Of a stretch of DNA of 24,000 nucleotides, positions 1,446 to 20,957 are shown one piece after another. The notes under the pieces were generated by a model, which was not told the DNA's origin, searched no databases, and was given only the letters and a program-made list of their open reading frames with translations. This DNA is from Terriglobia bacterium. Its GTDB lineage: Bacteria > Acidobacteriota > Terriglobia > Bryobacterales > Bryobacteraceae. Within the stretch, counting starts at the first letter, position 1; each line of letters starts with the position of its first letter. The position numbers and the translations under genes are program-made. Location of the stretch: NCBI GenBank assembly GCA_963823095.1, contig CAWGKI010000019.1, positions 309,705 through 333,704 of the forward strand. The letters run 5' to 3'.

Positions 1446-1540
1446 TGTGGCGCACGCTTCAGCGTGCCGTGGTGGCATTCATGCCACCATGCCGGACGTC
1501 GAGATGAATCTCGACGCTGCACGCTCAAGCGTGCGCCACA
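1446..1540. repeat. REP/MITE-like palindromic element (family A)
   Basis: A 22-nt inverted repeat, tgtggcgcacgcttcagcgtgc (1446-1467) and gcacgctcaagcgtgcgccaca (1519-1540), encloses two small hairpins (ggtggcat-tc-atgccacc; cgtcgagat-gaa-tctcgacg). It lies between the nadC start and the valS stop. Confidence 0.7.
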
Positions 1541-4452: not shown

Positions 4453-6432
4453 ATGGAACTCCTCACGCGCCTCTCGCTATTTCTGGTTTGTTTCTTCGCT
4501 CTCACCGCGACTGCGGCTTCCCCCGCCGAGCCCAAGGACGTGCAAGCCATCGACCACGTGCAGCAACTCGCTTTCGATCACCAGAATGTGCAGGTTCTAG
4601 TTCGCGGCGTGGTGATCGAGGCGCCCGGCCGCCTGCCCGCAGACCCCCGTTTCTTTCACATTCAGGACCCGAGCGGTGGCATCGCGGTCCTGCCGACTAC
4701 CCGCCTGGCGCTGAATCTGGGCGATTGCGTGGATGTCGCCGGGACCACCATGCTGTTTAACGACCTGGAGCCGCAGATCGAGGCGCCTTCCGTCAAGATC
4801 GCCACTGCGGCGTGCGCGCCGCCCGAGGCCCGCTTCCTTTCGGTGGGCGAGGTTCGCTCCGGCCGTGGTTCGGGCGGTCTGGTTCGAGTCCTGAGCCGCG
4901 TGGTGGACTCCAGCGCGGGGGATGATCGCGCTCTGATTCTGGTTGGCAGTGCCAAGCCGCCCCTGCGGGTGGTTCTGCGCCGGCCGGGCGCGGCACTCGC
5001 GGAGATCCGGCAAAAGGCCGCGGAAGGGGCACTGGTTGAGGTCGTCGGGGTCTCACTGCCTTCCGCCGATGGAAAGTCGAATTTCTTGCGTTTGCGGCGG
5101 CCATCGGACATCGTGCAAAAGGTACCGCCTCCCTTCCGCCCCCATCCGGGCGTGGTTTGGCTTTCATTGGCTCTGGTCGGCGTTGGAGGGGTTACCACCG
5201 CCTGGATCATCACGCTGCGCCGCGCCGTTGCGCGGAAGACGCGCGAGATCGGCCGCCTGCTTGAACAGGCCCAGGCCACCTCGCTGCTGAAGAGCCAGTT
5301 TCTGGCGAACATGAGCCACGAAATTCGAACTCCGATCCACGGAATCATGGGCATGCAAGAAATGGTTCTGCAGTCCGATCTCGAGCCGATACAGCGGGAG
5401 AGCCTGGAAATCGCCCACTCCGCGACGCGCTCGCTGCTCTCCCTGCTCAACGACATCCTGGACCTGTCGAAGATCGAAGCCAACAGCATGAAGATCGCTC
5501 CGGAGCCGATGAGCCTGCAGGGCTTGATGGCTGAGTTGGAGCGCCAGTTTCAGGCCCGGGCCCGCATGTCGGGTGTCGCATTCGAGGTTACGGTGGACCG
5601 GGACGTGCCCGAGTATGTCGTGGGCGATGCGTTGCGGCTCCGCCAGGTGCTCACCAATCTGTTGAGCAACGCATTCAAGTTCACCGAAGAAGGTTCGGTG
5701 ACCATGAGCTGTTCGGTGGCCGGACAGGTAGAAGTGGGGAACCGGGCGAACGCCGCGCGGGTCTGTTTCGCCGTTCAGGATACCGGCATCGGCATCGCAA
5801 CGGCGGATCTGGAGAAGGTCTTCTCCGCATTTCACCAGGCGGACGGCTCGATCACCAGGCGATTCGGAGGGACCGGGTTGGGCCTGACCATCGCCAGCCA
5901 CCTGGTGGACCTCATGCACGGCAGCTTGAATTGCGACAGCACGGAGGGCAGAGGTTCGGTCTTCTCCTTTGAAGTAGAACTGCCGCTCGCCGAAAGACCT
6001 CCGGCGGATGAGCCTCAATCCGAAGACGGCTTGCCAGTCCTGCCATTGCGCCTTCTGCTGGCCGAAGACAATCCTATCAATCAGCTTGTCGTCCGCCGCC
6101 CGCTCGAGGCGCTCGGCCATGAAGTCGTGGTCTGCGAAGACGGCCAGCGGGCAGTGGAGCTTTGTGAGGAGACGAGCTTCGACATCGTACTGATGGACGT
6201 CCAAATGCCAGTCCTGGACGGGTTGGAGGCGGCGCGGCGCATTCGTCAAGGGGAGTTGCGATCGCGAGGTCCGCGAGTGCCGATTCTGGCCTTGACCGCG
6301 AACTCTCTTCGCGATCAGATCGACGCCTGCTTCGAAGCCGGGATGGACGCCTGTCTCTGCAAGCCTTTTCTTCCCGCGGACCTATTGAACTTGATCGCGG
6401 TTCACGGACGGCATCCGCAGAAGATGGCTTAG
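4453..6432 (+). CDS. hybrid sensor histidine kinase / response regulator
   Basis: Contains a signal peptide (MELLTRLSLFLVCFFALTATAAS), a ~200-aa extracytoplasmic domain and a TM segment (VVWLSLALVGVGGVTTAWIITL). The kinase boxes are present: H-box MSHEIRTPIHGIMG, N-box LTNLLSNAFKFT, and G-boxes DTGIGI and GGTGLGLTI. A C-terminal receiver follows (LLLAEDNPINQ..DIVLMDVQMPVLDG..ALTAN..KPF). Confidence 0.9.
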   Translation: MELLTRLSLFLVCFFALTATAASPAEPKDVQAIDHVQQLAFDHQNVQVLVRGVVIEAPGRLPADPRFFHIQDPSGGIAVLPTTRLALNLGDCVDVAGTTMLFNDLEPQIEAPSVKIATAACAPPEARFLSVGEVRSGRGSGGLVRVLSRVVDSSAGDDRALILVGSAKPPLRVVLRRPGAALAEIRQKAAEGALVEVVGVSLPSADGKSNFLRLRRPSDIVQKVPPPFRPHPGVVWLSLALVGVGGVTTAWIITLRRAVARKTREIGRLLEQAQATSLLKSQFLANMSHEIRTPIHGIMGMQEMVLQSDLEPIQRESLEIAHSATRSLLSLLNDILDLSKIEANSMKIAPEPMSLQGLMAELERQFQARARMSGVAFEVTVDRDVPEYVVGDALRLRQVLTNLLSNAFKFTEEGSVTMSCSVAGQVEVGNRANAARVCFAVQDTGIGIATADLEKVFSAFHQADGSITRRFGGTGLGLTIASHLVDLMHGSLNCDSTEGRGSVFSFEVELPLAERPPADEPQSEDGLPVLPLRLLLAEDNPINQLVVRRPLEALGHEVVVCEDGQRAVELCEETSFDIVLMDVQMPVLDGLEAARRIRQGELRSRGPRVPILALTANSLRDQIDACFEAGMDACLCKPFLPADLLNLIAVHGRHPQKMA

Positions 6433-7892: not shown

Positions 7893-7916
7893 AAGCCCTG
7901 AACGGGGCCACCGCCC

Positions 7917-8580
7917 GGAAACCGAGCCGCGACCGTGAGGGATCTTTAGCATCGAGCCTTGTCAGATCCCCAGCACGGAGCCGCGAACGAAGAGAGCGGC
8001 CCCCCTCAAACCACCTCTCCTTTTCGGTCATGGCACAGATCTGAAACCGAGCCGCGACCGTGAGGGAGTGGTTGCAGCTTCTTCAGGCCCCCAGCACCGA
8101 GCCGCGAACGAAGAGAGCGGTCCCCTCTCGAACCACCTCTCCTTTTCGGTCATGGCTCACTCCTGAAACGGAGCCACGACCGCGAGGGAGTGGTTGCATC
8201 GAGCTGCTCGTCGCATGTCAGCACCGAACCGCGAACGAAGAGAGCGCCCCCCCCTCAAACCACCTCTCCTCTTCGGTCATGGCACCACCCTGAAACGGAG
8301 CCGCGACCGTGAGGGAGTGGTTGCATCGAGCTGCTCGTCGCATGTCAGCACCGAACCGCGAACGAAGAGAGCGCCCCCCCTCAAACCACCTCTCCTTTTC
8401 GGTCATGGCACCACCCTGAAACGGAGCCGCGACCGTGAGGGAGTGGTTGCAGCTTCTTCAGGTCCCCAGCACCGAGCCGCGAACGAAGAGAGCGGTCCCC
8501 TCTCGAACCACCTCTCCTTTTCGGTCATGGCTCACTCCTGAAACGGAGCCACGACCGCGAGGGAGTGGTTGCATCGAGCT
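7917..8580. repeat. tandem array of a ~122-127 bp hairpin-forming unit, 5 full copies plus one truncated copy
   Basis: Unit boundaries are about 7917, 8041, 8163, 8290, 8416 and 8538. The conserved arms are ctgaaacSgagccRcgaccgYgagggagtggttgca and ccgaRccgcgaacgaagagagcg...tcRaaccacctctccttttcggtcatggc. There are two internal variants (gcttcttcaggYccccagca versus tcgagctgctcgtcgcatgtcagca). Segment 8041-8205 recurs almost identically at 8416-8580, a 375-bp higher-order period. Confidence 0.9.

Positions 8581-9010: not shown

Positions 9011-9014
<4 letters not shown>
8682..9014 (+). CDS. arsenosugar-biosynthesis-associated peroxidase-like protein (AhpD/carboxymuconolactone decarboxylase fold)
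   Basis: MDGYYHQDDLAHFADMGKDAPELWRKF...ALGVAHAVQCPYCIDAYT carries the AhpD-like CxxC motif. GGGAGG lies about 8 nt upstream of ATG 8682. The 3' end overlaps the arsS start by 4 nt. The longer ORF from 8565 runs into the repeat array and is unlikely to be real. Confidence 0.75.
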
Positions 9015-9982
<968 letters not shown>

Positions 9983-10070
9983 TCGCGAGTATCGCCGGAC
10001 TTGTCTCCGGATTAAAACACGCGTCGTGAGTTCGATCGCGAGTTTTAGCATCTGATACGCTCTTTCAAGG

Positions 10071-10409
10071 ATGAAGCTTCCTAACGGCGCTGCGGCGATC
10101 GTCGAAATGTCCAAGCTCCGAGATTACTGCCTCGATCCGTATCATTCCCGCGGCCGGCACAAAGCCCGCATGTTCCAGTCCACACTGGGGATTTCCCAGG
10201 CGGACGCTGGCTGGCTGCGTGCGGCGTTGATTGCGGCGGCCGGCGAAGCGGACGCGGTGGAAGGTGTATCCGATGAATACGGCGACCGGTACACAGTGGA
10301 TTTCGAAATCAGCCGAAGCGATCGCCGTGCAATGCTCCGGAGCGCTCGGATTGTCTTCCGGGGCGAGACGGCACCGCGTTTGACGAGTTGTTTTGTACTA
10401 TTGAATTGA
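10071..10409 (+). CDS. DUF6883 domain protein (putative toxin-like partner of DUF4926)
   Basis: 112 aa. KLRDYCLDPYHSRGRHKARMF...GDRYTVDFEI...IVFRGETAPRLTSCF matches my recollection of the DUF6883 pattern. The next gene follows 9 nt downstream. Confidence 0.65.
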   Translation: MKLPNGAAAIVEMSKLRDYCLDPYHSRGRHKARMFQSTLGISQADAGWLRAALIAAAGEADAVEGVSDEYGDRYTVDFEISRSDRRAMLRSARIVFRGETAPRLTSCFVLLN

Positions 10410-10417
10410 GGTGCGCT

Positions 10418-10636
10418 ATGCGCGAACTCGAGCTGCTTTCCGTAGTTGCGCTGCTGGAAGACGTCTCCGGTAAGGGTCTCCTGCGTGGCCAGGTCGGCAC
10501 CGTGGTCGAGCGGCTTGCTGCCGGTGTATACGAGGTCGAGTTCAGCGACGACGAGGGGCGTTCGTACGCGGAGCTTCCGCTGCGGGCGGAACAGTTGCTC
10601 CAACTGCATCACGAGCCGACTCATCGGGCGGCCTGA
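10418..10636 (+). CDS. DUF4926 domain protein
   Basis: 72 aa from ATG 10418, with GAGGTG 5 nt upstream. MRELELLSVVALLEDVSGKGLLRGQVGTVVERLAAGVYEVEFSDDEGRSYAELPL is the typical DUF4926 pattern. The annotated ORF start at 10388 is probably too early. Confidence 0.65.
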   Translation: MRELELLSVVALLEDVSGKGLLRGQVGTVVERLAAGVYEVEFSDDEGRSYAELPLRAEQLLQLHHEPTHRAA

Positions 10637-10796
10637 ACAGGCGACCGGCGACCGGGGACAGCCTGACCCGTCCCATCTGCAACTCATTGAGCGCAGGGAA
10701 TTTGGTGAATCAGAGCAGGTGAGTATCAGATTCCTCCCGCCCCCATGCTGCTTGCCCGCCGCTTGATCGTATATCCGATAACCCCAGACAGAGTCC

Positions 10797-10991
10797 ATCG
10801 GCTGGGACGGAGCGCTCTACGATTGCGACTTCAACCAGATGCTGGGCCTCGAAACGAACCACGGCGCGCCCGCCCACATCCGCGACTTTTTCGTGGAGAT
10901 GCTCAACCGGCGGCAGATTGTCACCGGTCAGCATTGCTATGCTTGCACCGCCGGCGGCGGGTCGAGTTGCACGGGCGCGAGCGTCAAGTAG
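10797..10991 (+). pseudogene. 5'-truncated copy of the arsS 3' end (last 64 codons plus stop), copy 1
   Basis: Translates without interruption as IGWDGALYDCDFNQMLGLETNHGAPAHIRDFFVEMLNRRQIVTGQHCYACTAGGGSSCTGASVK*. The first 68 nt differ from arsS 9788-9855 at 1 position. The remaining 127 nt differ at about 17 positions, mostly synonymous. Confidence 0.9.
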
Positions 10992-11002
10992 TCAGCCGGC
11001 CG

Positions 11003-11542
11003 TTACTGGATCTTGGCCAGTTCCTGCTCGATCACACGCTTCATCTGCTCGAATTCCGCCGCTTCGTACCCGGAGGATTGGAATGCAATCCTGCCGTCGG
11101 CCCCGACCACGTAACTGCGCGGAATGCCGGCATTCGCAAACCGTTTGTAGATGGCGCGGTGCGGATCTGCGGCCAGCGGATAAGTAACGCGAAGCTTCGG
11201 CAACTCCTTGAGGATCACACCCTGCGTCTGTTCTCGCGCAATACCGACCATGGCGAACTTGCGGGACTTGAATCGGAGCCAGACTTCCTTCTCCAACTGC
11301 GGCATCTCCCCGCGGCACGGCCCACACCACGTCGCCCAGAAGTTCACCAGCAGGACTTTCCCCTTGAGGTTCTGTACATCGAACTTCTCACCCTTGATGC
11401 TGGACACCGTGAACGCAGGCATAGCTTGGCCAACCTTGGTGTACGTCTCCCACTTCACATCGGCAGGTGCAGCGTCCTGACCGCTGGCGAAGAACTGAGC
11501 CGTCAGTACCGCAATTGGCAACCAGCGGATCGATCTCATCAT
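11003..11542 (-). CDS. TlpA/ResA-family thiol-disulfide oxidoreductase (redoxin), secreted or periplasmic
   Basis: Start MMRSIRWLPIAVLTAQFFASGQ (signal peptide) at ATG 11542. Thioredoxin motif LVNFWATWCGPCRGEMP. The longer ORF reaching 11737 has no support. Confidence 0.85.
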   Translation of the reverse strand: MMRSIRWLPIAVLTAQFFASGQDAAPADVKWETYTKVGQAMPAFTVSSIKGEKFDVQNLKGKVLLVNFWATWCGPCRGEMPQLEKEVWLRFKSRKFAMVGIAREQTQGVILKELPKLRVTYPLAADPHRAIYKRFANAGIPRSYVVGADGRIAFQSSGYEAAEFEQMKRVIEQELAKIQ

Positions 11543-11724
11543 GTCGTCTTGCCCTTCGTCTGAATCGTACCGCACGAGCGGAGAAGAGGAGTTGCGCGTG
11601 CCCACTTTGGAGGGGTGTGCGACATAGAAGTGGACGCTAGCGTAATTCGCTGGCAAGGTGGCCGCAAGCCGGGCGTATGAGCAGGCCAGGCGGAAGGCGC
11701 GGTTGGGGCAGCTTGGTAAGCTGC

Positions 11725-12018
11725 GGCCGATTGGCAATCGGCCCTGGAGATTCTACATTTAAGCACGGCTGCATCAGGCCAAGATAGAAGAGGCGTGAGC
11801 GCGTTGTATCAGGGCATGGCTTCAGCCGTGCCGTAAGAACGCGCTCAGTCCAGGGCTTTAGCCGCCGCTGCTTTCCGGCTGCGCCGTTCACAGGGGCTAA
11901 AGCCCAATTCCTTTCCGCAACGGTTCGGCACGGCTAAAGCCATGCCCTGATACAAAGCCGGCCATGCCCAAATGCACCACCAGATGTAGAAACTGCAGGG
12001 CCGATTGTCAATCGGCCC
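11725..12018. repeat. triple-nested palindromic element (~294 bp), MITE/REP-like
   Basis: Outer inverted repeat: ccgattggcaatcggccctggagattctacat (11727-11758) versus atgtagaaactgcagggccgattgtcaatcgg (11985-12016). Middle: ttgtatcagggcatggcttcagccgtgccg (11804-11833) versus cggcacggctaaagccatgccctgatacaa (11926-11955), 29/30 complementary. Inner: gggctttagcc versus ggctaaagccc. Confidence 0.85.
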
Positions 12019-12046
12019 ACTTGCACTTTGGCGCGAGACGGCGGCG

Positions 12047-12074
12047 TTGACACGTTCCGCCGGTTTGTTATGCT
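12047..12074 (+). promoter_or_regulatory. candidate sigma70-type promoter of the AbrB/RelE module
   Basis: TTGACA (12047-12052), a 16-nt spacer, then TATGCT (12069-12074), 51 nt upstream of ATG 12126. Confidence 0.4.
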
Positions 12075-12084
12075 ACCGGCAGGG

Positions 12085-12099
12085 GTCAGGATTCCTGAC
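12085..12099 (+). promoter_or_regulatory. candidate operator palindrome
   Basis: gtcagg-att-cctgac is a perfect 6-bp inverted repeat just downstream of the putative -10 element. TA antitoxins typically autoregulate at sites in this position. Confidence 0.3.
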
Positions 12100-12125
12100 T
12101 TCCGGATTTAGTGAACATTCGGCAT

Positions 12126-12475
12126 TATGAACTCGACTACCAGAATTCAGCACAAGGGCCAGGTGACCATTCCCACTCGCGTCCGCGAACTCGCCGGGTT
12201 GTCGAAGGGCGACCTGGTGGAGTTTTCTTTTCAACGCGGCAAGATCGTCATCACGCCGAAGCTGATTGATTGACCGTTCGAAGTTTCCGAACGCCGGCAA
12301 CGAGTACACGCCGGAGCAGCGCCGCGTGATCGACGGCCGCCTGGCTTTGGCCGACGCCGACATCAAGGCGGGCCGCGTATCCAAAACCTTCTCGAACGCC
12401 GGCGATTTCATCGCCGATTTGCAGAAAGCAGTCAAGAAGAACCGCAAGGCCGCAAGTAAACGCGCCGCCAAATGA
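12126..12475 (+). pseudogene. AbrB/MazE/SpoVT-type antitoxin with C-terminal extension, disrupted by two small insertions
   Basis: MNSTTRIQHKGQVTIPTRVRELAGLSKGDLVEFSFQRGK is in frame 0. The canonical continuation IVITPKLI is in frame +1, after the aaa at 12240-12242. The rest, LIDRSKFPNAGNEYTPEQRRVIDGRLALADADIKAGR...KRAAK*, is in frame +2, after an apparent gatt/gatt 4-nt duplication at about 12264-12271. Confidence 0.65.
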
Positions 12476-12717
12476 ACATTCGCCGAACCACTCACTTCGA
12501 TCGCGCCTACGGCAAAGCGCCTGAGGATATCCAGGCCGCATTTAACAAACAACTGGTACTCCTGCTTCAGAACCTCCGCCATCCCTCGCTCCACGCCAAG
12601 AAATACGACGAAGGTCAAGACCGCTGGTAGGCTCGTGTCACTCGCGACTGGCGATTCTATTTTCGAATCGAAGATGACACGTACATCCTGCTCGACATCA
12701 TCCCTCGCCCCAAGTAG
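12472..12717 (+). pseudogene. RelE/ParE-family toxin with an in-frame TAG
   Basis: The ATG overlaps the antitoxin stop (aATGa). MNIRRTTHFDRAYGKAPEDIQAAFNKQLVLLLQNLRHPSLHAKKYDEGQDRW-TAG(12628-12630)-ARVTRDWRFYFRIEDDTYILLDIIPRPK*. The family pattern continues in frame across the stop codon. Confidence 0.75.
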
Positions 12718-12814
12718 TAGTCATTCAATCCTGCATCGACTCGCTCAGCCCACCAAGTATCTTTCGAACGAGGTGGCTGGCAATAACTGACGCTCCCCCT
12801 CCGTCCTGTTCGCG

Positions 12815-13129
12815 ATCGGCCGCTTCCGCGATTTCCGGGATGCCAGCGGAAAATGCGAAGCGTACATGCAGCGGCTGGTGCAGGCGTACAACCCCGTGGC
12901 GGCGGCGGGGGTGATGTGCCGCTATACGCGGCCCATCGGCTGGGATGGAACGCTTTTCGACTGCGACTTCAACCAGATGCTGGGCCTATCGACCAACCAC
13001 GGCGCACCCACGCACATCCGCGACTTTTCCGTGGAAATGCTCAACCGGCGGCAGATCGTCACCGGCCAGCACTGCTACGCGTGTACGGCGGGCGGTGGCT
13101 CGAGTTGCACGGGCGCGAGCGTCAAGTGA
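12815..13129 (+). pseudogene. 5'-truncated copy of the arsS 3' end (last 104 codons plus stop), copy 2
   Basis: IGRFRDFRDASGKCEAYMQRLVQAYNPVAAAGVMCRYTRPIGWDGTLFDCDFNQMLGLSTNHGAPTHIRDFSVEMLNRRQIVTGQHCYACTAGGGSSCTGASVK*. It is colinear with arsS 9668-9982 with no indels and roughly 14-20% nt divergence. Weak similarity may extend to about 12808. Confidence 0.9.
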
Positions 13130-13333
13130 TCTGTCCCCGGAATTACCCTTTTGCCGGATTTGCTGTGCCTGAATGCGAAAGGCTTGATTATACCGAAGAT
13201 GGAGCATAACATGCATAGCGAGTAAACAGGCTCTCCACATAATTGCGAACTATACAGAAGACGCAAACTTGTGCGAGCCTTTTGCGTGGTTTTGGAAAAC
13301 GTTCGTGAAACTGGATCATCATGTGGAGGATGA

Positions 13334-13750
13334 ATGAAGTTACTTACTTGGTTCGGAACTAACGTAACATTACGATATGCTTTGCTGATGGTGTTGGCCG
13401 CCTCGGTCGGTCCGGGGGTCGTAGCCGCATATTCGCAATGCAGCGGGTGTGACTGCATGAAATCGTGCGGCGATGGAGCAACGAGCAGCTCGGGAACGCG
13501 CTGTAGTACGTGCAACGTGAATGGCTCTGGATCGACGCCGTGTTATTGGCGGAATTGCACCAACACGAAGACGTGTTGGACATGGAGCGCGGATTTGTCC
13601 ATTTGCATTCCGACATCACACTGCGGCCCCGTAAACCCTCCTCAGGGATCCTGTACTGACCACTACTCGGATGCGTGCATCCAAAGTGGCAGCAATTGCG
13701 CCTGTGACCATATGAGCTGCGACGATCCTTTGTGCGGGTCGAAAACGTGA
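13334..13750 (+). CDS. secreted cysteine-rich small protein (17 Cys in about 105 mature residues), function unknown
   Basis: GGAGG lies 5 nt upstream of ATG 13334. The signal-like N-terminus ends ..ALLMVLAASVGPGVVAA/YSQ. The mature part is rich in C/S/T/G/N (CSGCDCMKSC..CSTCNVNGSGSTPC..CTNTKTC..CACDHMSCDDPLC). The local GC content is lower than in the flanking DNA. Confidence 0.6.
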   Translation: MKLLTWFGTNVTLRYALLMVLAASVGPGVVAAYSQCSGCDCMKSCGDGATSSSGTRCSTCNVNGSGSTPCYWRNCTNTKTCWTWSADLSICIPTSHCGPVNPPQGSCTDHYSDACIQSGSNCACDHMSCDDPLCGSKT

Positions 13751-13773
13751 GACAAGCAACAAAGAGGTGGATC

Positions 13774-14598
13774 ATGAAGTACAGAATTCTGCTACTTGTA
13801 GGCATCGTCGCTTTATCGACGTTCGCGTCGTTCGGCGTTCGGTCCTGGTTTCGAGGGCAAGCGGTAAGGGCCAATGAAAAGCGTGTGGCCGACACTGTTG
13901 CAGCTCTTCCGCCAATTGTGCCAGCCACCGTAACATTTAAAGAGATCCTCAGCGCCCCGGGTAAATCCGATATCCTCTCCACAGAACGCCAGTATGCTGT
14001 TCGTGTGGATGGATCTGAGGTGTGGACCGACCGGCAACATACCAATGCAGGCGACATATACCTCACTCACTGGCACATGCGTTTAAGTGATGGGACGGAC
14101 GCAGAGGGCGACGATGTGACAAAAACGATGACGGCGGTGAGGGTGCCGTCATCCAGATCGGATAGGGTGCTAGAGAGATGGGATCCTAATTCGGGATGTA
14201 CCACCCAGGCGAGCGGTTTCAACAAGACTCCTGCGCCAGTGGCTGAGGAGACACTCTTGGGCATCAACACGATGAAGATTGCATTGAGCGATTCGAAAAC
14301 TGCGCGTATCACTGTGTGGCGAGCACCCGGCTTGAACTGTCTCGAACTGCGCCGTTTAGCGGAGTTTATGAACTCGGACGGTTCCGTGAAGGATGCCAGC
14401 GATCTAGTCGCCACCGAAGTACTGCTTGGTGAGCCAAACGGTTCGCTGTTCCTTCTTCCGACAGGGGAAGAAAACGTTAGCTATTCAGAACGTTACAGGC
14501 GCCTTGCTGCCGCCCAAGGTGGTCAACCCAACGAGAGTGATCTACAATCTCTTCAACGTAGCGACAAGGTATTCTCGAGATATGCGCTCAACCCCTAA
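13774..14598 (+). CDS. hypothetical N-terminally anchored or secreted protein, 274 aa
   Basis: AGAGGTGG lies 4 nt upstream of ATG 13774. N-terminus MKYRILLLVGIVALSTFASFGV. No family recognised. Same strand and same lower-GC block as the Cys-rich gene, starting 24 nt after its stop. Confidence 0.55.
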   Translation: MKYRILLLVGIVALSTFASFGVRSWFRGQAVRANEKRVADTVAALPPIVPATVTFKEILSAPGKSDILSTERQYAVRVDGSEVWTDRQHTNAGDIYLTHWHMRLSDGTDAEGDDVTKTMTAVRVPSSRSDRVLERWDPNSGCTTQASGFNKTPAPVAEETLLGINTMKIALSDSKTARITVWRAPGLNCLELRRLAEFMNSDGSVKDASDLVATEVLLGEPNGSLFLLPTGEENVSYSERYRRLAAAQGGQPNESDLQSLQRSDKVFSRYALNP

Positions 14599-15055
14599 GA
14601 AACGTGGCTGAGCCGCGCGCAATAGAGACCGCGACAGGCCGAAGGAGGGGACTGTGCAAGTTCTCCCCTCTCTCGGCCGAAAGCACGGGGCTCACCACGT
14701 TGTGCGGACCATTGGCTCCGTTCTAATCCGGGGACGCAAACACCGTTCGGCCACCTGGCGCAATCAAGCACCAAAGAACTCCAGACGACCACAGCCCGAC
14801 GACAGGTTTCCAACGCGGCGAGTCATGCACTTGGCGCCACGCGGCGCGCTTGCGCCTGGGTCTATACCCTTGGCGGCGAAGAGAAATCGGCTGATTCGCG
14901 AAGCAAAACCGCAAGGCCTTACTGAAATTCCACTGTATCTTACAGATTCTAAAGAGGCGTTTCGGTAAGCCTTACGGTTTTGCAGTCGCGCTCGACGCAG
15001 TTTTCCTGTCCCGAAGCATGCGAAACACATAGCCGGAGCGGATGCCATGCCGCTC

Positions 15056-15435
15056 ATGGAGGATACACTAATCCGGGTAAATCCGAGAATCCGCGGATAG
15101 GATAGGCGATTCGCTCAAATGCCTTCGTGATTTCCCCGAAGATGCCCGGCACGATGCGGGTTATCAACTGGACACAAGTACAGACAAAGTACGAGCGGGG
15201 AACAGCCGGATGATTTCAAGTCCTATGCCGGCCATCGGCAAGGGTGTCGAGGAGATTCGCGTTTCGGATGACAGCGGCGCTTATCGTGTGATCTACGTCG
15301 CCAAACGCGCGGATGCCGTGTACGTGCTGCACGCTTTCCAGAAGAAGACGCAGGCAACTCCGAAGCCGCATCTACGAAAGGACTATCGATGCGGCGAAAA
15401 GACGATTTGCGCAACTGCTGAGAGGTGCGAAATGA
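15056..15435 (+). pseudogene. HigB/Gp49-like (RelE/ParE superfamily) toxin, multiply frame-disrupted
   Basis: Family-like strings are split across frames. IGDSLKCLRDFPEDARHDAGYQLD and PMPAIGKGVEEIRVSDDSGAYRVIYVAKRADAVYVLHAFQKKTQATPKP are in frame 0. QVQTKYERG is in frame 1 and GEQPDDFK in frame 2 (15172-15220). The C-terminus IYERTIDAAKRRFAQLLRGAK* is in frame 1, ending at TGA 15433-15435. The only upstream ATG (15056) runs into TAG 15098. Confidence 0.6.
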
Positions 15436-15713
15436 GCAAACCCGAGAGCTATTTGAGTGTTTGGGATGCGATCGCGGACACGCCCGAGCAGGCTGCGAAC
15501 CTGAGGGCGCGCGCCGAACTGATGCAGAAGATCACGGCCATCGTAAAGCAGCAGGATTGGACCCAGGCCGAGGCCGCGAGCCGCTGCGGGGTGACGCAGC
15601 CACGGATCAACGATTTGCTGCGCGGCCGGGTCTCGCGCTTCTCGCTTGACGCGTTGGTAAACATCGCCACGGCGCTGGGGTGCCGCGTGCGGGTAGATCT
15701 TGAAGCTGCCTGA
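15432..15713 (+). CDS. XRE-family HTH antitoxin (HigA-like)
   Basis: 93 aa, with the ATG overlapping the toxin stop (aATGa). MSKPESYLSVWDAIADTPEQAANLRARAELMQKI...WTQAEAASRCGVTQPRINDLLRGRVSRFSLDALVNIATALG is the typical partner of Gp49-like toxins. Confidence 0.8.
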   Translation: MSKPESYLSVWDAIADTPEQAANLRARAELMQKITAIVKQQDWTQAEAASRCGVTQPRINDLLRGRVSRFSLDALVNIATALGCRVRVDLEAA

Positions 15714-15902
15714 GCGGCCGCCGGGCCGGGATCGCGAGACGCACCAGCTTTGGCGGAGAGTAAAGGGCAGGACTCCCTCCTCGCGCTGGGTGACTTTCTT
15801 CTTGACCCAACGACTCAGCCTTCGGTGACAGTTTACGATCCTGGGGCAGTATGCTCAAATCCCAAGCCCGACGTGATCGGTCTCACGCGCCGATTCAGAG
15901 GC

Positions 15903-16013
15903 CTACCGCTCGATATGCCGCTTGACGGCATCTGTGAACTGCCGGGTTGTCGCAGAGCCGCCGAGATCGCACGTCAGCACGTCGCCCTGCCTGAACGCCA
16001 CCATGACGGCCTT
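15903..16013 (-). pseudogene. 5'-truncated copy of the icd 3' end (last ~36 codons plus stop)
   Basis: The minus-strand translation ..KAVMVAFRQGDVLTCDLGGSATTRQFTDAVKRHIER* matches the icd C-terminus ..KAIMAAFRQGDVLTRDLGGRATTRQFTDAVKRHIES* (19868-19978). Nucleotide identity is about 70% with no indels. Confidence 0.8.
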
Positions 16014-16068
16014 GGGCGTGACATCCAAGCACCGTGCGCTACAAGTGTCGTGAGCTACCAGCATTTGG

Positions 16069-16422
16069 ATGGATAATGGGCCTGTGATGACCAAGCAGGA
16101 GACTATTGCCGAGATCACTCGCCGGCTCGTCGAATTCTACCGGCCGGCATGTATCTACCTTTTCGGCTCGGAGGCGAGAGGCGAGTCCGGGCCCGACAGC
16201 GATCTGGATTTCTGTGTTGTCCTGCCCGACGATGCGCCGGCGAGCTTATACCGCGACCGGAGTATCCACCGGCGCTTTTGGGGCTTGGGTGTGGCTGTGG
16301 ATATCGTTCGTTTGCCCCGCAACGACTTTGAAGCGCGCGCCGCGCATGTTGTCGCTTCACTGCCGGCAACCATTCTGCGCGAAGGGAGGCTGCTCTATGA
16401 CGCCGGACGAATTGCTGCGTAA
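16069..16422 (+). CDS. nucleotidyltransferase-domain protein (MNT-type antitoxin)
   Basis: LFGSEARGESGPDSDLDFCVVL is the GSxxRGx(n)DxD minimal-NTase motif. 117 aa. An alternative start exists at ATG 16087. Confidence 0.8.
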   Translation: MDNGPVMTKQETIAEITRRLVEFYRPACIYLFGSEARGESGPDSDLDFCVVLPDDAPASLYRDRSIHRRFWGLGVAVDIVRLPRNDFEARAAHVVASLPATILREGRLLYDAGRIAA

Positions 16423-16801
16423 AGAGGCGGCAAAGTGGCTCCGCGAGGCGGAAAAAGACCGCAACGCCGCGCGAGTCCTGGCGGACGTCGAGCCGTCGCG
16501 CTCAGTCTTTCACAGCCAGCAGGCTGCGGAAAAGGCCATCAAAGCGTTTCTCACGTTTCGCCAGATTGCCTTCCGGAAGACGCATGACCTCTCCGACCTG
16601 GGAGCGCAATGTGCGGCGTTGGACCCGACTCTCGAATCAACGCTGCGGGATGCCGAGGAACTGACCGACTATGCGTCGGCTTTCCGGTATCCGGATTCGC
16701 CATATGAACCCGATGCCGCGGAAGCGGCCCAGGCGTTGACGCTGGCTGCCCGGCTCGGCGAGGAAATACAGCAACGAATCGCCGCAAACGGGACCTTTTG
16801 A
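16397..16801 (+). CDS. HEPN-domain protein (toxin partner of MNT)
   Basis: 134 aa from ATG 16397, with GAAGGGAGG upstream. WLREAEKDRNAARVLAD...FHSQQAAEKAIKAFL...KTHDLSDL carries the HEPN Rx4-6H-type region. It overlaps the NTase gene by 26 nt, the classic MNT-HEPN arrangement. Confidence 0.8.
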   Translation: MTPDELLRKEAAKWLREAEKDRNAARVLADVEPSRSVFHSQQAAEKAIKAFLTFRQIAFRKTHDLSDLGAQCAALDPTLESTLRDAEELTDYASAFRYPDSPYEPDAAEAAQALTLAARLGEEIQQRIAANGTF

Positions 16802-16935
16802 TGTATCTGGAGGCAGCATGCTTAATCCCCAAGCCCCACGCTGATCAGGTTGCCCAGAGCATGTAGCGCAAAATGCACAGAGGGGCAAAAGGGCAAAGGT
16901 CTTAATTCCCGGGAACGTATGTGTTGCCCTAAAAC

Positions 16936-17289
16936 TTGGTAGAGCTACTCGAATACGTGAATGCCGCTGGGATTTCTCCCTCTGCGATGTGGCGCGAGAA
17001 ACTCGATGCGACAACCCGGGCGCGGGTCACGGTCGCAGTTCTCAGGCTGGAGACCGGCAAGTTCTCAACTGTCTAAGGCGCTGGGTCCTGCATTCTCGAA
17101 ATGCGCCTGGATTTCGGCCCCGGCTATCGTGTGTATTTCGGCAAAGACGGAGAGCAGTTGACGATCCTGCTTGGCGGCGGCACGAAGAAGCGGCAAGAGT
17201 CCGATATCAAAGCGGCGCAAACGCTCTGGCATGAATCCAAGCGGACGAAAGGGGGGCGGGGGAACGATGGCAAACACGCGGAGATTTAG
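16936..17289 (+). pseudogene. addiction-module killer protein (RelE/ParE superfamily, HI1419-like) with an in-frame TAA
   Basis: (TTG 16936) VELLEYVNAAGISPSAMWREKLDATTRARVTVAVLRLETGKFSTV-TAA(17074-17076)[55 protein letters not shown]... The stop is in frame. The family normally has Lys or a similar residue at this position. Confidence 0.7.
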
Positions 17290-17599
17290 CGAGACGGTTA
17301 AGGCGGACCTCGAAAGGAATGTGGAGTTTCGCCGTGCACTCCTGAGCGAAGCTGTAGCTTGCATGGTCTCGGGAGATTTGGAGACGGGGAAAGTCGTTCT
17401 GCGCGAGTACGTCAACGGGACGGTTGGATTCCTCAAACTCGGGTCGGATCTTGGCCGGTCCCCGAAGAGCCTGATGCGGATGCTCAGTCCGGCAGGGAAC
17501 CCGCAAGCGCGGAATCTATTTGAGATGGTCGCCTATCTGCAGAAGATTGAAGGCACCGTGCTCGAAGTCCGCCCAAGCAACAACAAAGTCGCGGCGTGA
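17267..17599 (+). CDS. addiction-module antidote protein (HI1420-like HTH)
   Basis: 110 aa from ATG 17267: [49 protein letters not shown]...[31 protein letters not shown]. It overlaps the killer gene's 3' end by 23 nt. Confidence 0.8.
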
Positions 17600-17772
17600 C
17601 CCGCCGGGTTCTCGTTTGAACCGAGCAAGATCTCAAGGGCAGCGACGTCTGACCCGCGCTCAAGTGTCTGAACTGCCCCAAGTAGCAGCCGTCGGGCTTT
17701 CCAGGCTTGGTTCGATTCGTCGGACCGGGTTTGGCCCCCGAGGATGAGACCCCGGCCGATTGCCTACGCTGG

Positions 17773-18135
17773 TTAAATCGGCAGTAACCGAATTCTGTTC
17801 CGGTTCAGGTCTACGGTGACCAATGCGCCGGTTTCCAGGTGGGAGCGGCTGGCGTGCAACGCGCGAACGACAATCTCGCCGATCGCCGATGGAAGAACGT
17901 CCTGGGTACGGACTTGGATCACGCTCGGCCGGCGCAACTTCCGAGTTGCGAGGAGCGCGCCAAAATCCAGATCGTGAGTGAAGATCACCAGCCCGTTTGC
18001 ACTGGCGTAGTCCAGTATTTCGGTGTCTGGCGCGGATGGCTGACCGATCTCAGACCAGTGCGTACTGTCGAAACCGGCATCGGCCAGGAACTGGACCCAA
18101 AGCGGGCTCAAATTCATGTCGATCAGGAGTTTCAT
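17773..18135 (-). CDS. DUF5615 family PIN-like protein
   Basis: 120 aa: MKLLIDMNLSPLWVQFLADAGFDSTHWSEIG...DTEILDYASANGLVIFTHDLDFGALL. There is a 4-nt overlap with the upstream DUF433 gene. Confidence 0.75.
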   Translation of the reverse strand: MKLLIDMNLSPLWVQFLADAGFDSTHWSEIGQPSAPDTEILDYASANGLVIFTHDLDFGALLATRKLRRPSVIQVRTQDVLPSAIGEIVVRALHASRSHLETGALVTVDLNRNRIRLLPI

Positions 18136-18359
18136 GCCGCAGGTAGGGGGACTTCAAACTCCTCGACTCGCCAGGCGGCGTAGGCAAGCGCCTGTCGAAT
18201 GTCCTCTTCTTCAAGGTAAGGGTATGCGGCGAGAATCTCAGAGTTGGATCGCCCCGAGGCGACGAGCCCGACAATCGTCCCCACCGTGACACGCATTCCG
18301 CGCACGCAGGGCTTGCCGCCCATCACTTCCGGGTTTCGCGTGATTCGATCAAGCACCAT
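18132..18359 (-). CDS. DUF433 domain protein (putative antitoxin of the PIN-like protein)
   Basis: 75 aa: ITRNPEVMGGKPCVRGMRVTVGTIVGLVASGRSNSEILAAYPYLEEEDIRQALAYA is the typical DUF433 pattern. Confidence 0.8.
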   Translation of the reverse strand: MVLDRITRNPEVMGGKPCVRGMRVTVGTIVGLVASGRSNSEILAAYPYLEEEDIRQALAYAAWRVEEFEVPLPAA

Positions 18360-18509
18360 GGCAAGTACAGCTAATTCTACCTCGTGGCGATTGATACCGG
18401 GTGCCTCACCCGCCCTTAAGCAATTACATCCCCACGCGGCGCCCGGTCAACAAGGACGTGGGTTCTCATCGTGAACGACAACACCCCCTCGATCCGCGGG
18501 CAACCAGCA

Positions 18510-19188
18510 TTATCGAAGCAGCCTCAATCCCACTACGAACAGCACACAAACGGCCCAGCCAGAAATCAGCGCAACTAGCCCCCAGGCACGCTTCCTCGGC
18601 AGCCGCCACCACATGTAGTAGCTACCGAAAATCATGACCAGCAGACCAGCCGCGACTGCATCCATCGACAGCGCCCAAATGCTGGTCAGAATCCAGTCCC
18701 GCTGGTTCCGGGAATCGCCGGCCCGGACGCCGGTGAACGTGTGCAGGATGCGCATCACGCCCCAAGCGTTTACGTCGATGCGCTGCACCTTGACTCGCTC
18801 TTGAACCAGGTCCGTTTTGATTTCAAACATGTGGCCCGGACGGCTCGCCCGGAAATTGAGTTGGCCAGAATCGTCCTGCGCCGACGTCCACTCGATCTCG
18901 CCCGCGATACCGAGCTGCGCCAGGATGTTCTGCGCGCGAGCGAGGTCGGAGCCCGCAGGCGGACGGCTGATTTTGCTGTTCGAAGGTCGTTTGCTTTCGT
19001 GCCGGCCAGAAGTCGGCAAAGGTCCACTTCGGGTGATTCAGCAGAAGGCCCGTGAAGGCGAACAGCCAGATGAAGAAGAGCAGGAAGAGGCCGATGTAGA
19101 AATGCAGCCTGCGATTCCATGTTTCAAAGCCCTCCGCGGCTCGCGCAGGCAGAGGCTTCTCCGGGAGGTTGTTAACCGGCGATTGCAT
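18510..19188 (-). CDS. PepSY-associated TM-helix membrane protein, reading frame broken once near 18965-18980
   Basis: The N-terminal part MQSPVNNLPEK...WNRRLHFYIGLFLLFFIWLFAFTGLLLNHPKWTFADFWPARKQTTFEQQ is in ORF 18823..19239. The continuation ISRPPAGSDLARAQNILAQLGIAGEIEW...MWWRLPRKRAWGLVALISGW is in ORF 18510..19019. The frames join at the t-run 18971-18974. Total length is 679 nt, i.e. 226 codons plus 1 nt. Confidence 0.7.
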
Positions 19189-19804
19189 AGAGCACCCCGA
19201 AGAAGCTGAACGCGCCGGCCGCCAGGAGGACAATTCCAATCCGCCTTTCCGATCGCAACACGAACCACAGGTAGATCCCGCTCATCGTTATGAAGAACAA
19301 GAGGTAGCAGGTGCCATCGGCCAGCCACTTCCAAACAATCGCGGGATACCAGTTCATGCGGATGTCGGCCAGGTGCGGGCCGGGGGACTTGTGGAGCAGG
19401 ATGAAGGCGTCCACGAGCCCCGTCTTGCGTTCCGTGACCGTTGCGGTGCGCGTGGACAGGTCGAGATCGAGGATGGTCTCCCGCCCCGGTACGCTCACAG
19501 GGATGCTGAGTTCGCGTTTCTTTGGGGAGTATGAGATGAACCCGATCTCCCCGCGGATATGGGCCTGATCGAGCAGAGTACGCACCGCATCCACTCTGGC
19601 TCGTCCGGAAAGGCTCTCGATGCCCGCGGGGATTTGGAGATTCTCAACCTGTCTGGAGAGACGAGCCACCGAGCCTGGGGGAGCGGCGCCCGGCGGGTGA
19701 ACCAGCGCAAACACGCTGATGGCGAACACGACCACGAACGGGCTGATAAACAGACCCGCGTACAGATGCAGGTCGCGCGTGACGAGATAGAAGCGTTTAC
19801 TCAT
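19172..19804 (-). CDS. PepSY-associated TM-helix membrane protein (paralog of the downstream gene)
   Basis: 210 aa: MSKRFYLVTRDLHLYAGLFISPFVVVFAISVFALVHP...TLLDQAHIRGEIGFIS...WYPAIVWKWLADGTCYLLFFITMSGIYLW. Same architecture as 18510..19188. Confidence 0.7.
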   Translation of the reverse strand: MSKRFYLVTRDLHLYAGLFISPFVVVFAISVFALVHPPGAAPPGSVARLSRQVENLQIPAGIESLSGRARVDAVRTLLDQAHIRGEIGFISYSPKKRELSIPVSVPGRETILDLDLSTRTATVTERKTGLVDAFILLHKSPGPHLADIRMNWYPAIVWKWLADGTCYLLFFITMSGIYLWFVLRSERRIGIVLLAAGAFSFFGVLYAIAG

Positions 19805-19867
19805 ACTGCACTTGAGGACCTCGCAGGAATCGGCGCCATACGATTTTCAACGCGCGGGCGACTGGAT

Positions 19868-20878
19868 CTAAGATTCGATGTGCCGCTTCACCGCGTCGGT
19901 GAACTGGCGCGTGGTCGCCCTGCCTCCCAGATCCCGCGTCAGCACGTCGCCTTGACGGAAGGCGGCCATGATCGCCTTCTGCAGCCGGTTGGCGGCCTCG
20001 CCCTCGCCCAGATGGCGCAGCATCAGGATGGAAGAAGACATCAGCGCCGTAGGATTTGCGACACCCTTTCCCGCAATGTCGGGCGCCGATCCGTGCACGG
20101 CTTCGAACACCGCGCACTTCTCGCCCATATTCGCTCCGGGGACTACGCCTAAACCGCCGACGAGCCCGGCGGCCAGATCCGACACGATGTCGCCATACAG
20201 GTTCGGCAGCAGCAGGACGTCGAACGTTTCGGGCCGCATCACGAGTTGCATCGACGCGTTGTCCACGATCAGTTCGTTGTACGCGATGTCGGGGTAATTG
20301 GCGGCAACTTCCCGGCAGCAGCGGATGAACAGGCCATCCGACAGCTTCATGATGTTGGCCTTGTGGACGGCCGTGATCTTCTTGCGGTTGTTTTTCTTTG
20401 AGTAGGCGAAGGCATAGTTCGCGATGCGCATGGAGGCGTAGCGCGTGATGATCTTCAGGCTCTCGACGACGTCCTTGATGATCTCGTGCTCCAGGCCGGA
20501 GTACAGGTCTTCCGTGTTTTCGCGGAAGATGACCATGTCGATATTGACGTCCTGAAAGCGTGTTTTCAGGCCCGGCAACGTGAACACCGGACGCACGTTG
20601 GCAAACAGATCGAGCTGCTTCCGGATGGCCACGTTCACGCTCTTGAAGCCGCCCGCGATGGGCGTGGTGACCGGTCCTTTTAGCGCCACGCCAGTGCGTT
20701 CGACCGATTCGAGAACATGCGGTGGCAGCGATACGCCGGCCTGCTCGATGATGGCTGCGCTCAACTCCACGCGCTCCCATTCGATCGGCACGCCGAGCGC
20801 GCTGAGGACTTCAACGGTCGCATCGGCCACCTCGGGCCCAATGCCGTCGCCGGGGATGAGGGTGATCTTGTATGCCAC
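19868..20878 (-). CDS. icd: isocitrate dehydrogenase, NAD-dependent type (isocitrate/isopropylmalate dehydrogenase family)
   Basis: 336 aa from GTG 20878: (M)AYKITLIPGDGIGPEV...KSVNVAIRKQLDLFANVRP...FRENTEDLYSG...LPNLYGDIVSDLAAGLVGGLG...EAVHGSAPDIAGKG. The 417-aa extended ORF would leave no promoter space before the divergent purH. Confidence 0.85.
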   Translation of the reverse strand: MAYKITLIPGDGIGPEVADATVEVLSALGVPIEWERVELSAAIIEQAGVSLPPHVLESVERTGVALKGPVTTPIAGGFKSVNVAIRKQLDLFANVRPVFTLPGLKTRFQDVNIDMVIFRENTEDLYSGLEHEIIKDVVESLKIITRYASMRIANYAFAYSKKNNRKKITAVHKANIMKLSDGLFIRCCREVAANYPDIAYNELIVDNASMQLVMRPETFDVLLLPNLYGDIVSDLAAGLVGGLGVVPGANMGEKCAVFEAVHGSAPDIAGKGVANPTALMSSSILMLRHLGEGEAANRLQKAIMAAFRQGDVLTRDLGGRATTRQFTDAVKRHIES

Positions 20879-20957
20879 GGTTTCATCGTAACGCGCGGCG
20901 CAATCTGGAACACTTCCGTGCGAGCCTCCGGCCGCGACGTGTGAAAATGAGAATTCC

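Follow-up and report, generated by a model that had tools for sequence, protein, structure and literature searches.

An integrase-free, fast-changing hotspot for toxin-antitoxin and other accessory genes between arsS and icd in a soil Bryobacteraceae clade

We analyzed a 24,000-nt window of a Terriglobia bacterium genome (Acidobacteriota; Bryobacteraceae; assembly GCA_963823095.1, contig CAWGKI010000019.1, positions 309,705 to 333,704) in which the convergent genes arsS (+ strand; arsenosugar radical SAM enzyme) and icd (- strand; NAD-dependent isocitrate dehydrogenase) are separated by 9.9 kb of accessory DNA. Coordinates are positions in this window, and the interval under study, 9983-19867, lies between the two stop codons. 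The gap, a hotspot that lacks integrases, turns over rapidly in one soil Bryobacteraceae clade and houses toxin-antitoxin and other accessory genes. It contains truncated copies of the 3' ends of both flanking genes, two of arsS (B and C) and one of icd (I'), and these most likely are scars left by the homology-guided uptake of DNA from related species rather than attachment (att) sites of a new mobile element. We rate at slightly better than even the chance that the gap belongs to the 'minimal mobile element' type of recombination hotspot and grew by homologous recombination anchored in the flanks together with illegitimate recombination.

Gap content in related genomes

We compared the locus among contigs from Bryobacteraceae (Acidobacteriota) whose ArsS proteins are 89-96% identical. 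Seven different fillings of the arsS-icd gap were identified, counting that of the window and an empty site (L001) in which the two stop codons lie 9 bp apart. The empty site bears out the view, put forward in a preliminary description of this DNA, that the whole interval is accessory. In L176 the gap consists of a 182-nt palindromic miniature inverted-repeat transposable element (MITE), and in L167-L169 of a pair of PepSY genes. L161, L162, and L164 have four unknown genes and a DUF433 gene, L166 encodes a 231-aa open reading frame (ORF), NOV_C, ParDE, and a killer/antidote pair, and L171 encodes a 1018-aa MmeI-like type IIG restriction-modification enzyme. In the closest relative, L177 (96% aa identity in ArsS), arsS is followed by a DUF6883/DUF4926 pair and then by the contig end. 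In L178-L180, arsS is followed by a methyltransferase gene and a truncated HTH_32 ORF; L178 is the only one of these contigs that is long enough, and icd was not found downstream of its arsS. The comparison across the clade that the preliminary description had proposed reveals gap content that differs among relatives.

None of the relatives' islands contains a gene-end copy detectable by tblastn, by a blastn-short comparison of the final 120 nt of either gene with the same contig's island, or by a repeat search. This includes L178, and direct repeats longer than 11 nt are absent from L161, L166, L167, and L171. More distantly, no duplicated arsS ends were found among the matches listed for 160 further arsS loci. 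Because the fillings differ and lack gene-end copies, the gap is a hypervariable hotspot in which content ordinarily turns over without leaving att-like repeats. Several modules of the window (killer/antidote, DUF433, the PepSY pair, and a Cys-rich pair) recur in relatives without any gene-end arm.

Genes for mobility were sought by translating the interval in six frames, with stops replaced by X, and scanning the result against Pfam at E<=1. There is no indication of an integrase, serine recombinase, DDE transposase, TnpB, or relaxase, or of a remnant of one; all families returned are those of the modules in Table 1. The preliminary description, which had suggested a profile search of this kind, was therefore right to see a modular interval with no recombinase. 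Pfam annotations of the gap variants in relatives likewise include no integrase or transposase. The sole exception is the truncated HTH_32 ORF of L178, a divergent locus without icd downstream, which is a possible remnant of an insertion sequence (IS) or transposase. The unknown ORFs of L161 and L166 have no match in PHROGs. Viral contigs and phage records gave no match to the arsS and icd ends, and plasmid records yielded only distant toxin-antitoxin homologs.

The preliminary description had also likened the interval to an integron cassette array. A box-pattern search for attC R''(RYYYAAC)...R'(GTTRRRY) pairs spaced 50-150 nt apart on either strand returned none, versus 1.3 expected by chance. 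No IntI is encoded, and genes occur on both strands in two-gene toxin-antitoxin operons rather than as the co-oriented and largely promoterless single-gene cassettes of an integron. An integron, or a cluster of attC sites lacking integron integrases (CALIN), is excluded because IntI and attC boxes are absent and gene orientation is mixed. Elements that depend on Xer (IMEX, pdif modules) were also rejected, since no dif core with <=3 mismatches was found at the borders; this is a weak test, as the core is of the E. coli type and may not be acidobacterial.

Truncated gene ends that resemble congeneric alleles

The matches to the end of arsS extend far beyond chance repeats, and B and C are still recognized as DUF3641 (E values of 2e-20 and 7e-32). 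These copies, and the main elements of the interval, lie where the preliminary description had placed them (Table 1). B differs from the resident arsS end (A) at 19 of 198 nt and at only 3 amino acids, and it carries one or two amino acid changes absent from other members of the clade. C is a more diverged allele, with 0.66-0.78 synonymous (dS) and 0.056-0.074 nonsynonymous (dN) substitutions per site relative to A. I' has an R-to-C change in the LTRDLGG motif, which does not vary otherwise. For the gene-end copies overall, dS is 0.5-0.8 and dN/dS is ~0.1.

The distances of B and C from A are about those between congeneric arsS genes (84-92% nt identity); the arsS genes of L001 and L176 are much further from A (75%). 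The copies are alleles under purifying selection from congeneric lineages, rather than decayed local duplicates. Given the low dN/dS and the congeneric level of divergence, each arsS copy evolved within a working arsS of a related lineage and has been nonfunctional only briefly. The joints could be located at 10792/10793, 12812/12813, and 16013/16014, and they vary between events: one is 198 nt and another 312 nt from the end of arsS (-198, -312), one is 105 nt from the end of icd (-105), and several lie in spacer DNA. Within the 198-312-nt arsS arms, perfect runs of 27-41 nt are present.

Stacked modules and signs of recombination at the flanks

Proceeding outward from icd, the order is PepSY pair, DUF433/PIN, killer/antidote, MNT/HEPN, and I'. 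The PepSY pair and icd are collinear with L167, in which the pair is the whole island. The DUF433 and PIN genes and an adjoining 119-nt segment match L161, in which DUF433 adjoins icd. The killer/antidote region (17116-17620) is 94% identical to a module of L166 that abuts the icd terminator and an inverted copy of a short motif, M, described below; the core genes that flank the gap are only ~84-87% identical between the window and L166. The icd-side block is a stack of icd-adjacent modules from three different relatives (L167, L161, and L166). The outer flank of I' (15838-15902) is the spacer found downstream of icd in L166. From C through an M(+)-like spacer, the central block, M(-), and a terminator remnant to I', the arrangement has the architecture of a complete L166-type locus.

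At the other flank, the working arsS gene of L177 is A-like except from -139 to -70 relative to the stop codon (L177 1579-1648; window 12991-13060), where it is identical to copy C at 70 of 70 nt and A differs at 12 sites. At a background divergence of 10%, a difference-free run of 70 nt has a probability of ~6e-4. This patch is a gene-conversion tract. Further, the window and L177 have ~10 differences per 100 nt in arsS and the neighboring CMD-family gene and ~3 in the DUF6883/DUF4926 module, c1 (96-98% nt identity). The change point falls at ~10040-10090, just past the arsS stop codon. Together, the patch and the shift in identity show that homologous recombination has acted at the arsS flank. 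On which arsS end is native the indications conflict: distance ratios point to A, and the L177 patch to a C-type end in this sublineage.

Motif M

Motif M (TTGAATCCGGGGACAGTATACTCAAATCCCAAG) is ~33 nt long and, within the 2.25 Mb of fetched loci, is limited to the arsS-icd gap. It occurs right after the arsS stop codon in several relatives, inverted before the icd terminator in L166, inside L166, and at 14554 in L161. The window has two copies (15836, 16801) and weaker half-sites elsewhere. The U-tract of the icd terminator forms part of M, which we interpret as conserved sequence of the flanks, carried along when fragments are imported. M may also represent the two arms of an old palindrome or MITE.

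Motif M of L161 adjoins, at the variable region's inner edge, a set of three direct TGTCCCCGGATT iterons (14518-14567; spacing 17-21 nt) whose layout resembles multiple protein-binding sites. A Tn7-like reading of these iterons was rejected, as there are no tns genes and no target duplications. The MITE that fills the gap of L176 (10979-11160) is also present at 3262-3443 and 16291-16486 of that contig (three copies in 21 kb; 91-94% identity) and has terminal repeats GCCCGGATGTTGCACCA. Its end has only CCGGAT in common with M.

Proposed mechanism and alternatives

In the mechanism we favor, congeneric DNA carrying the homologous locus would pair with the flanks, namely arsS with its downstream spacer and icd with its terminator. 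Homologous recombination at both ends would replace the island, which is the state of all sampled relatives. In the lineage of the window, several events would have been additive, with one end recombining in the flank and the other joining illegitimately nearby, in some cases within the resident gene near its 3' end (arsS -198 and -312; icd -105) and in others in the spacer that follows it. Each additive event would place a new module next to the core gene and push older modules outward, and its junction would keep a truncated gene end or a remnant of the terminator or M. On the icd side, the joint within icd (-105) is read as the oldest, the others lying in spacer DNA. The cargo retained would be mostly toxin-antitoxin pairs, which are resistant to loss.

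Several points weigh against this mechanism. No donor genome was found in which B ends a working arsS with the TlpA gene behind it, or in which C and I' flank the central block; the sole placed homolog of that block, L182, is in another locus, at neither arsS nor icd. A site-specific integrase or a Campbell crossover gives the same topology of intact gene, cargo, and direct partial copy. The recombinase search covered the window and the islands of relatives, so a trans-acting recombinase encoded in the rest of the source genome would have fallen outside it. Finally, the recurrence of M at several boundaries has an uncertain explanation.

Alternatively, the interval could hold remnants of prophages, of integrative and conjugative or integrative and mobilizable elements (ICEs, IMEs), or of cis-mobilizable elements (CIMEs) that entered the 3' ends of arsS and icd through tyrosine- or serine-integrase recombination, each supplying a new gene end. 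They would have accreted there in tandem, their integrases either deleted since or always provided in trans. Direct partial gene-end copies beside an intact, regenerated gene (A/B/C for arsS, I/I' for icd) do have the topology of attL and attR. There is also a precedent: in E. coli, e14 inserts at the icd 3' end and a 163-bp icd' copy is left behind (PMC6379469), so icd is a described target, contrary to the preliminary description. Integrase-less CIMEs and accretion are described too. The last residue of Icd varies (S/A/G/V/R), as expected if elements supply the gene end, and toxin-antitoxin genes are typical cargo of surviving remnants. We nevertheless consider such an origin unlikely. Neither the six-frame Pfam scan of the interval nor six other gap fillings yielded an integrase remnant, arsS and icd ends are missing from the viral contigs and phage records, B and C do not start at the same crossover core, and most icd-side junctions have no gene-end copy. 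With no integrases in any variant, no repeats in relatives, and varying joints, classical integrative elements are a poor fit. The proposal that the gene-end copies stand in for att sites is likewise not supported, given that six other fillings (L161, L166, L167, L171, L176, and the partial L177) have neither copies nor short direct repeats. The preliminary description had further suggested that circles composed of a gene-end arm and cargo enter and leave by RecA-type Campbell recombination, the arm being kept by selection. Arms of 198-312 nt with such perfect runs would suffice for RecA, the reading frames of the copies are intact, and the 70-nt patch in L177 documents recombination between arsS-end alleles. 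Homologous exchange at gene ends is thus the part of the suggestion that survives. We regard portable arms themselves as quite improbable, for they occur in the window and in no relative, the same modules are found elsewhere without them, and at least four modules on the icd side have only one arm between them; recent displacement of functional alleles explains the intact frames equally well.

Other alternatives make M the true recombination site, either as the site of an unlinked recombinase or as the terminal inverted repeat of a MITE or transposon that carries cargo, with the gene-end copies incidental. M is exclusive to the gap in the fetched loci and brackets the variable part, in inverted orientation, in L161, L171, and L166. 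A further copy follows HEPN, a degenerate one follows the killer/antidote module, and M lies beside the three iterons of L161. The terminal repeats of the L176 MITE contain CCCGGAT, and possible IS fragments are near (DDE_3 beside the L176 locus, HTH_32 in L178). However, M is missing at the DUF433/PepSY and PepSY/icd boundaries, throughout L167, and from L182, the other locus with the Cys-rich module. No target-site duplications were seen, the similarity to the L176 MITE end is weak, and the overlap of M with the terminator U-tract means that it is perhaps merely conserved flank carried along. We therefore hold a role for M as the recombination site to be very unlikely. A slightly more remote prospect is that the gap is a cassette platform served by an unlinked recombinase or transposase with M as its site, in effect an integron-like toxin-antitoxin collector of Acidobacteriota without IntI or attC. 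In such a platform M would be inverted at the edges and direct between some modules, M may have come from MITE-like ends, and the gene-end copies would be by-products of imprecise events. That the array is an assembly chimera of co-occurring strains or species is scarcely credible. The source contig seems to occur in read-level assemblies as well and the copies derive from different congeneric alleles, as a chimera might entail; yet the junctions c1/B, c2/C, and I'/MNT share no k-mer with the abutting genes, the copies are 75-90% identical and not collapsed, and the L177 contig independently has arsS followed by c1.

Relation to known systems

The minimal mobile elements of Neisseria (Saunders and Snyder 2002 and Snyder 2007, as cited in PMC3787668) are variable regions between conserved flanking genes that are exchanged by homologous recombination (PMC3787668). 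As in these elements and other core-gene-flanked (defense) hotspots, the arsS-icd gap has different whole-gene modules between the same conserved genes, no mobility genes (bar the HTH_32 ORF of L178), and signs of homologous recombination in the flanks. The window differs in being additive rather than replacive and in retaining truncated copies of both flanking gene ends, and its host is an acidobacterium.

An additive outcome of this kind has a counterpart in homology-facilitated illegitimate recombination, reportedly described in naturally transformable bacteria by de Vries and Wackernagel in 2002. In that process, known mainly from laboratory transformation, a one-sided homologous anchor and an illegitimate join at the far end add foreign DNA beside the anchor. 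For the window, one-sided joining of this type, like the order of the events, is what we infer from natural footprints only. Arrays of orphan C-terminal and immunity genes of Rhs, CdiA, and MafB provide another parallel: displaced gene 3' ends and small cargo genes lie downstream of an intact gene, and the arrays are built and reshuffled by homologous recombination via the retained gene stretch, without a recombinase. There, however, the displaced ends are the variable tips of toxins, with the cognate immunity gene as cargo, whereas the window has displaced ends of conserved housekeeping genes and unrelated cargo.

The likeness to e14 and phage 21 lies in the icd target and in the series of intact icd end, inserted DNA, and displaced partial icd' copy. 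Unlike the window, e14 has its own integrase and one fixed core; the window has no integrase and a single icd' for several modules, and its relatives with other islands have no icd' copy. Accretion of streptococcal ICEs and IMEs, and CIMEs, resemble the window in having integrase-less segments, att-like direct repeats at a gene 3' end, and a tandem stack. CIMEs retain att sites belonging to a known ICE family, whose integrase mobilizes them, whereas the window shows no such family, integrase, or constant core. The window resembles chromosomal integrons and CALINs in its arrayed small cassettes, its wealth of toxin-antitoxin genes, and the lack of a recombinase nearby; it differs in lacking IntI and attC, in having genes on both strands with their own operon structure, and in a boundary motif that is conserved in sequence and absent from many boundaries.

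Many defense and toxin-antitoxin islands lie between core genes and bear no hallmark of a mobile element, and their assembly is usually deduced from presence and absence only. This locus keeps physical footprints, specifically truncated allele-like ends of both flanks, terminator remnants at joints, and modules that each match the core-adjacent module of a different relative. If our reading is right, it would record, in nature, additive recombination anchored in the flanks between species of one genus of soil acidobacteria; little is known of how this group transfers genes. It is also a warning that regenerated gene ends without an integrase need not mean a new mobile element, and on present evidence this locus is not a new mobile system.

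Contents of the interval and flanking DNA

The features of the locus are compiled in Table 1.

Table 1. Features of the arsS-icd locus, in window coordinates
Feature	Position	Strand	Basis or remark
arsS (arsenosugar radical SAM enzyme), intact	9011-9982	+	TIGR04167, 430 bits vs cutoff 300; DUF3641
End A: last ~312 nt of resident arsS, repeated downstream	9671-9982	+	Alignment of three ends
Conserved arsS-downstream spacer with short motif M(+) (tcgcgagtatcgccGGACTTG..TCTCCGGATTaaaac)	9983-10020	+	Common to relatives with different islands; heterology begins after it
Module c1: DUF6883 (10071-10409) and DUF4926 (10388-10636)	10071-10636	+	Same module directly after arsS in L177
Copy B: arsS 3' end (last 66 codons and stop; 198 nt)	10793-10991	+	90% identity to resident end; frame intact
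TlpA/ResA-like thiol-disulfide oxidoreductase (module c2)	11003-11737	-	Pfam AhpC-TSA/Redoxin; NCBIfam ResA/TlpA below cutoff
Nested long palindrome in c2, overlapping TlpA-like gene start	11715-12030		Arms 11725-11758/11984-12017 and 11801-11833/11926-11958
MazE/AbrB antitoxin (12127-12273), 69-aa ORF (12266-12475), RelE-like (12472-12790)	12127-12790	+	MazE_antitoxin in six-frame scan
Copy C: arsS 3' end (last ~104 codons and stop; ~312 nt)	12813-13129	+	83% identity to resident end; frame intact
M(+)-like spacer behind copy C (tccccGGAATT...ccGGATTT)	13130-13165	+	Weak match
Low-GC Cys-rich secreted protein pair (13334-13750, 13732-14598)	13223-14698	+	77% nt identity to module at unrelated locus L182
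Noncoding gap with CCGGATT half-sites in M(-) orientation	14699-15120		14725-14735 exact; three GGATT in 15070-15100
HigB/Gp49-like toxin and HTH_37/XRE antitoxin	15123-15713	+	Reads through as one ORF from 15210
Motif M(-) (15836-15868) and terminator-like hairpin remnant	15836-15902	-	Sequence just downstream of icd stop in L166
Copy I': icd 3' end (last 35 codons and stop)	15903-16013	-	~75-78% identity to last 105 nt of icd (end I)
MNT nucleotidyltransferase (16069-16422) and HEPN (16397-16801) toxin-antitoxin pair	16069-16801	+	Pfam
Second M(-) copy, right behind HEPN stop	16801-16835	-	Repeat search; nhmmer E 4e-6
RelE/ParE 'killer' and antidote (17267-17599)	16996-17625	+	TIGR02683
Conserved noncoding segment, 119 nt	17637-17755		Also in islands of L161, L171, L178, L180
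DUF5615 PIN-like (17773-18135) and DUF433 (18132-18359)	17773-18359	-	DUF433 is the icd-adjacent gene in L161
PepSY_TM gene (19172-19804) and PepSY-like gene (18510-19239)	18510-19804	-	With icd, collinear with L167
icd (NAD-dependent isocitrate dehydrogenase), intact	19868-20881	-	TIGR00175, 443 bits vs cutoff 432

The annotations of the preliminary description hold for the modules as such and need amendment for three genes. The RelE-like gene has an in-frame stop at 12628-12630 (its label is a sequence pattern only, with no match in Pfam), the 'killer' gene has one at ~17074, and the second PepSY-like gene (18510-19239) is split across two frames. The island is thus partly a graveyard, with at least two toxins interrupted by in-frame stops and one frame-split PepSY-like gene. 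The palindrome at 11715-12030 is probably a MITE-like element; as single-stranded DNA it folds to one long hairpin (-102.8 kcal/mol, z = -12.9).

The Cys-rich pair of L182 (2510-3980) lies beside a PIN gene, and a second partial copy is present at 4620-5138. The 119-nt segment is 83-84% conserved in L161 (14731-14849), L171 (12521-12638), L178 (3446-3563), and L180 (4040-4147), and it is part of a 414-nt block common to L161 and L171. It was rejected as an RNA structure (weak, with only 2 compensatory pairs and no match in Rfam) and as a transposase remnant, as it has no conserved reading frame.

GC content is ~62% for the window and drops to 54-59% in the interval, with a minimum at 13000-15500. 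There are no tRNA genes in the window and no Rfam matches in 9500-20500 at E<=1. Housekeeping genes make up the remainder of the window: nadC, a class I tRNA synthetase, a hybrid histidine kinase, an M24 peptidase, the CMD-family gene, purH, and an ATP-grasp gene. The spacer between the M24 peptidase and CMD genes (7914-8580) contains ~5 tandem copies of a 122-127-nt unit, and the same repeats open the L177 contig. Upstream of CMD-arsS, the window has the kinase and M24 peptidase genes and relatives (L161-L175) have glycogen phosphorylase. Downstream of arsS in L178, 9889-9970 matches the far-left flank of the window (1461-1540). This match and the upstream change in synteny suggest rearrangement breakpoints at the hotspot. 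On the icd side, the similarity among relatives ends exactly at the stop codon, and each lineage has its own terminal residue in Icd (S, A, G, or V, with R in I').

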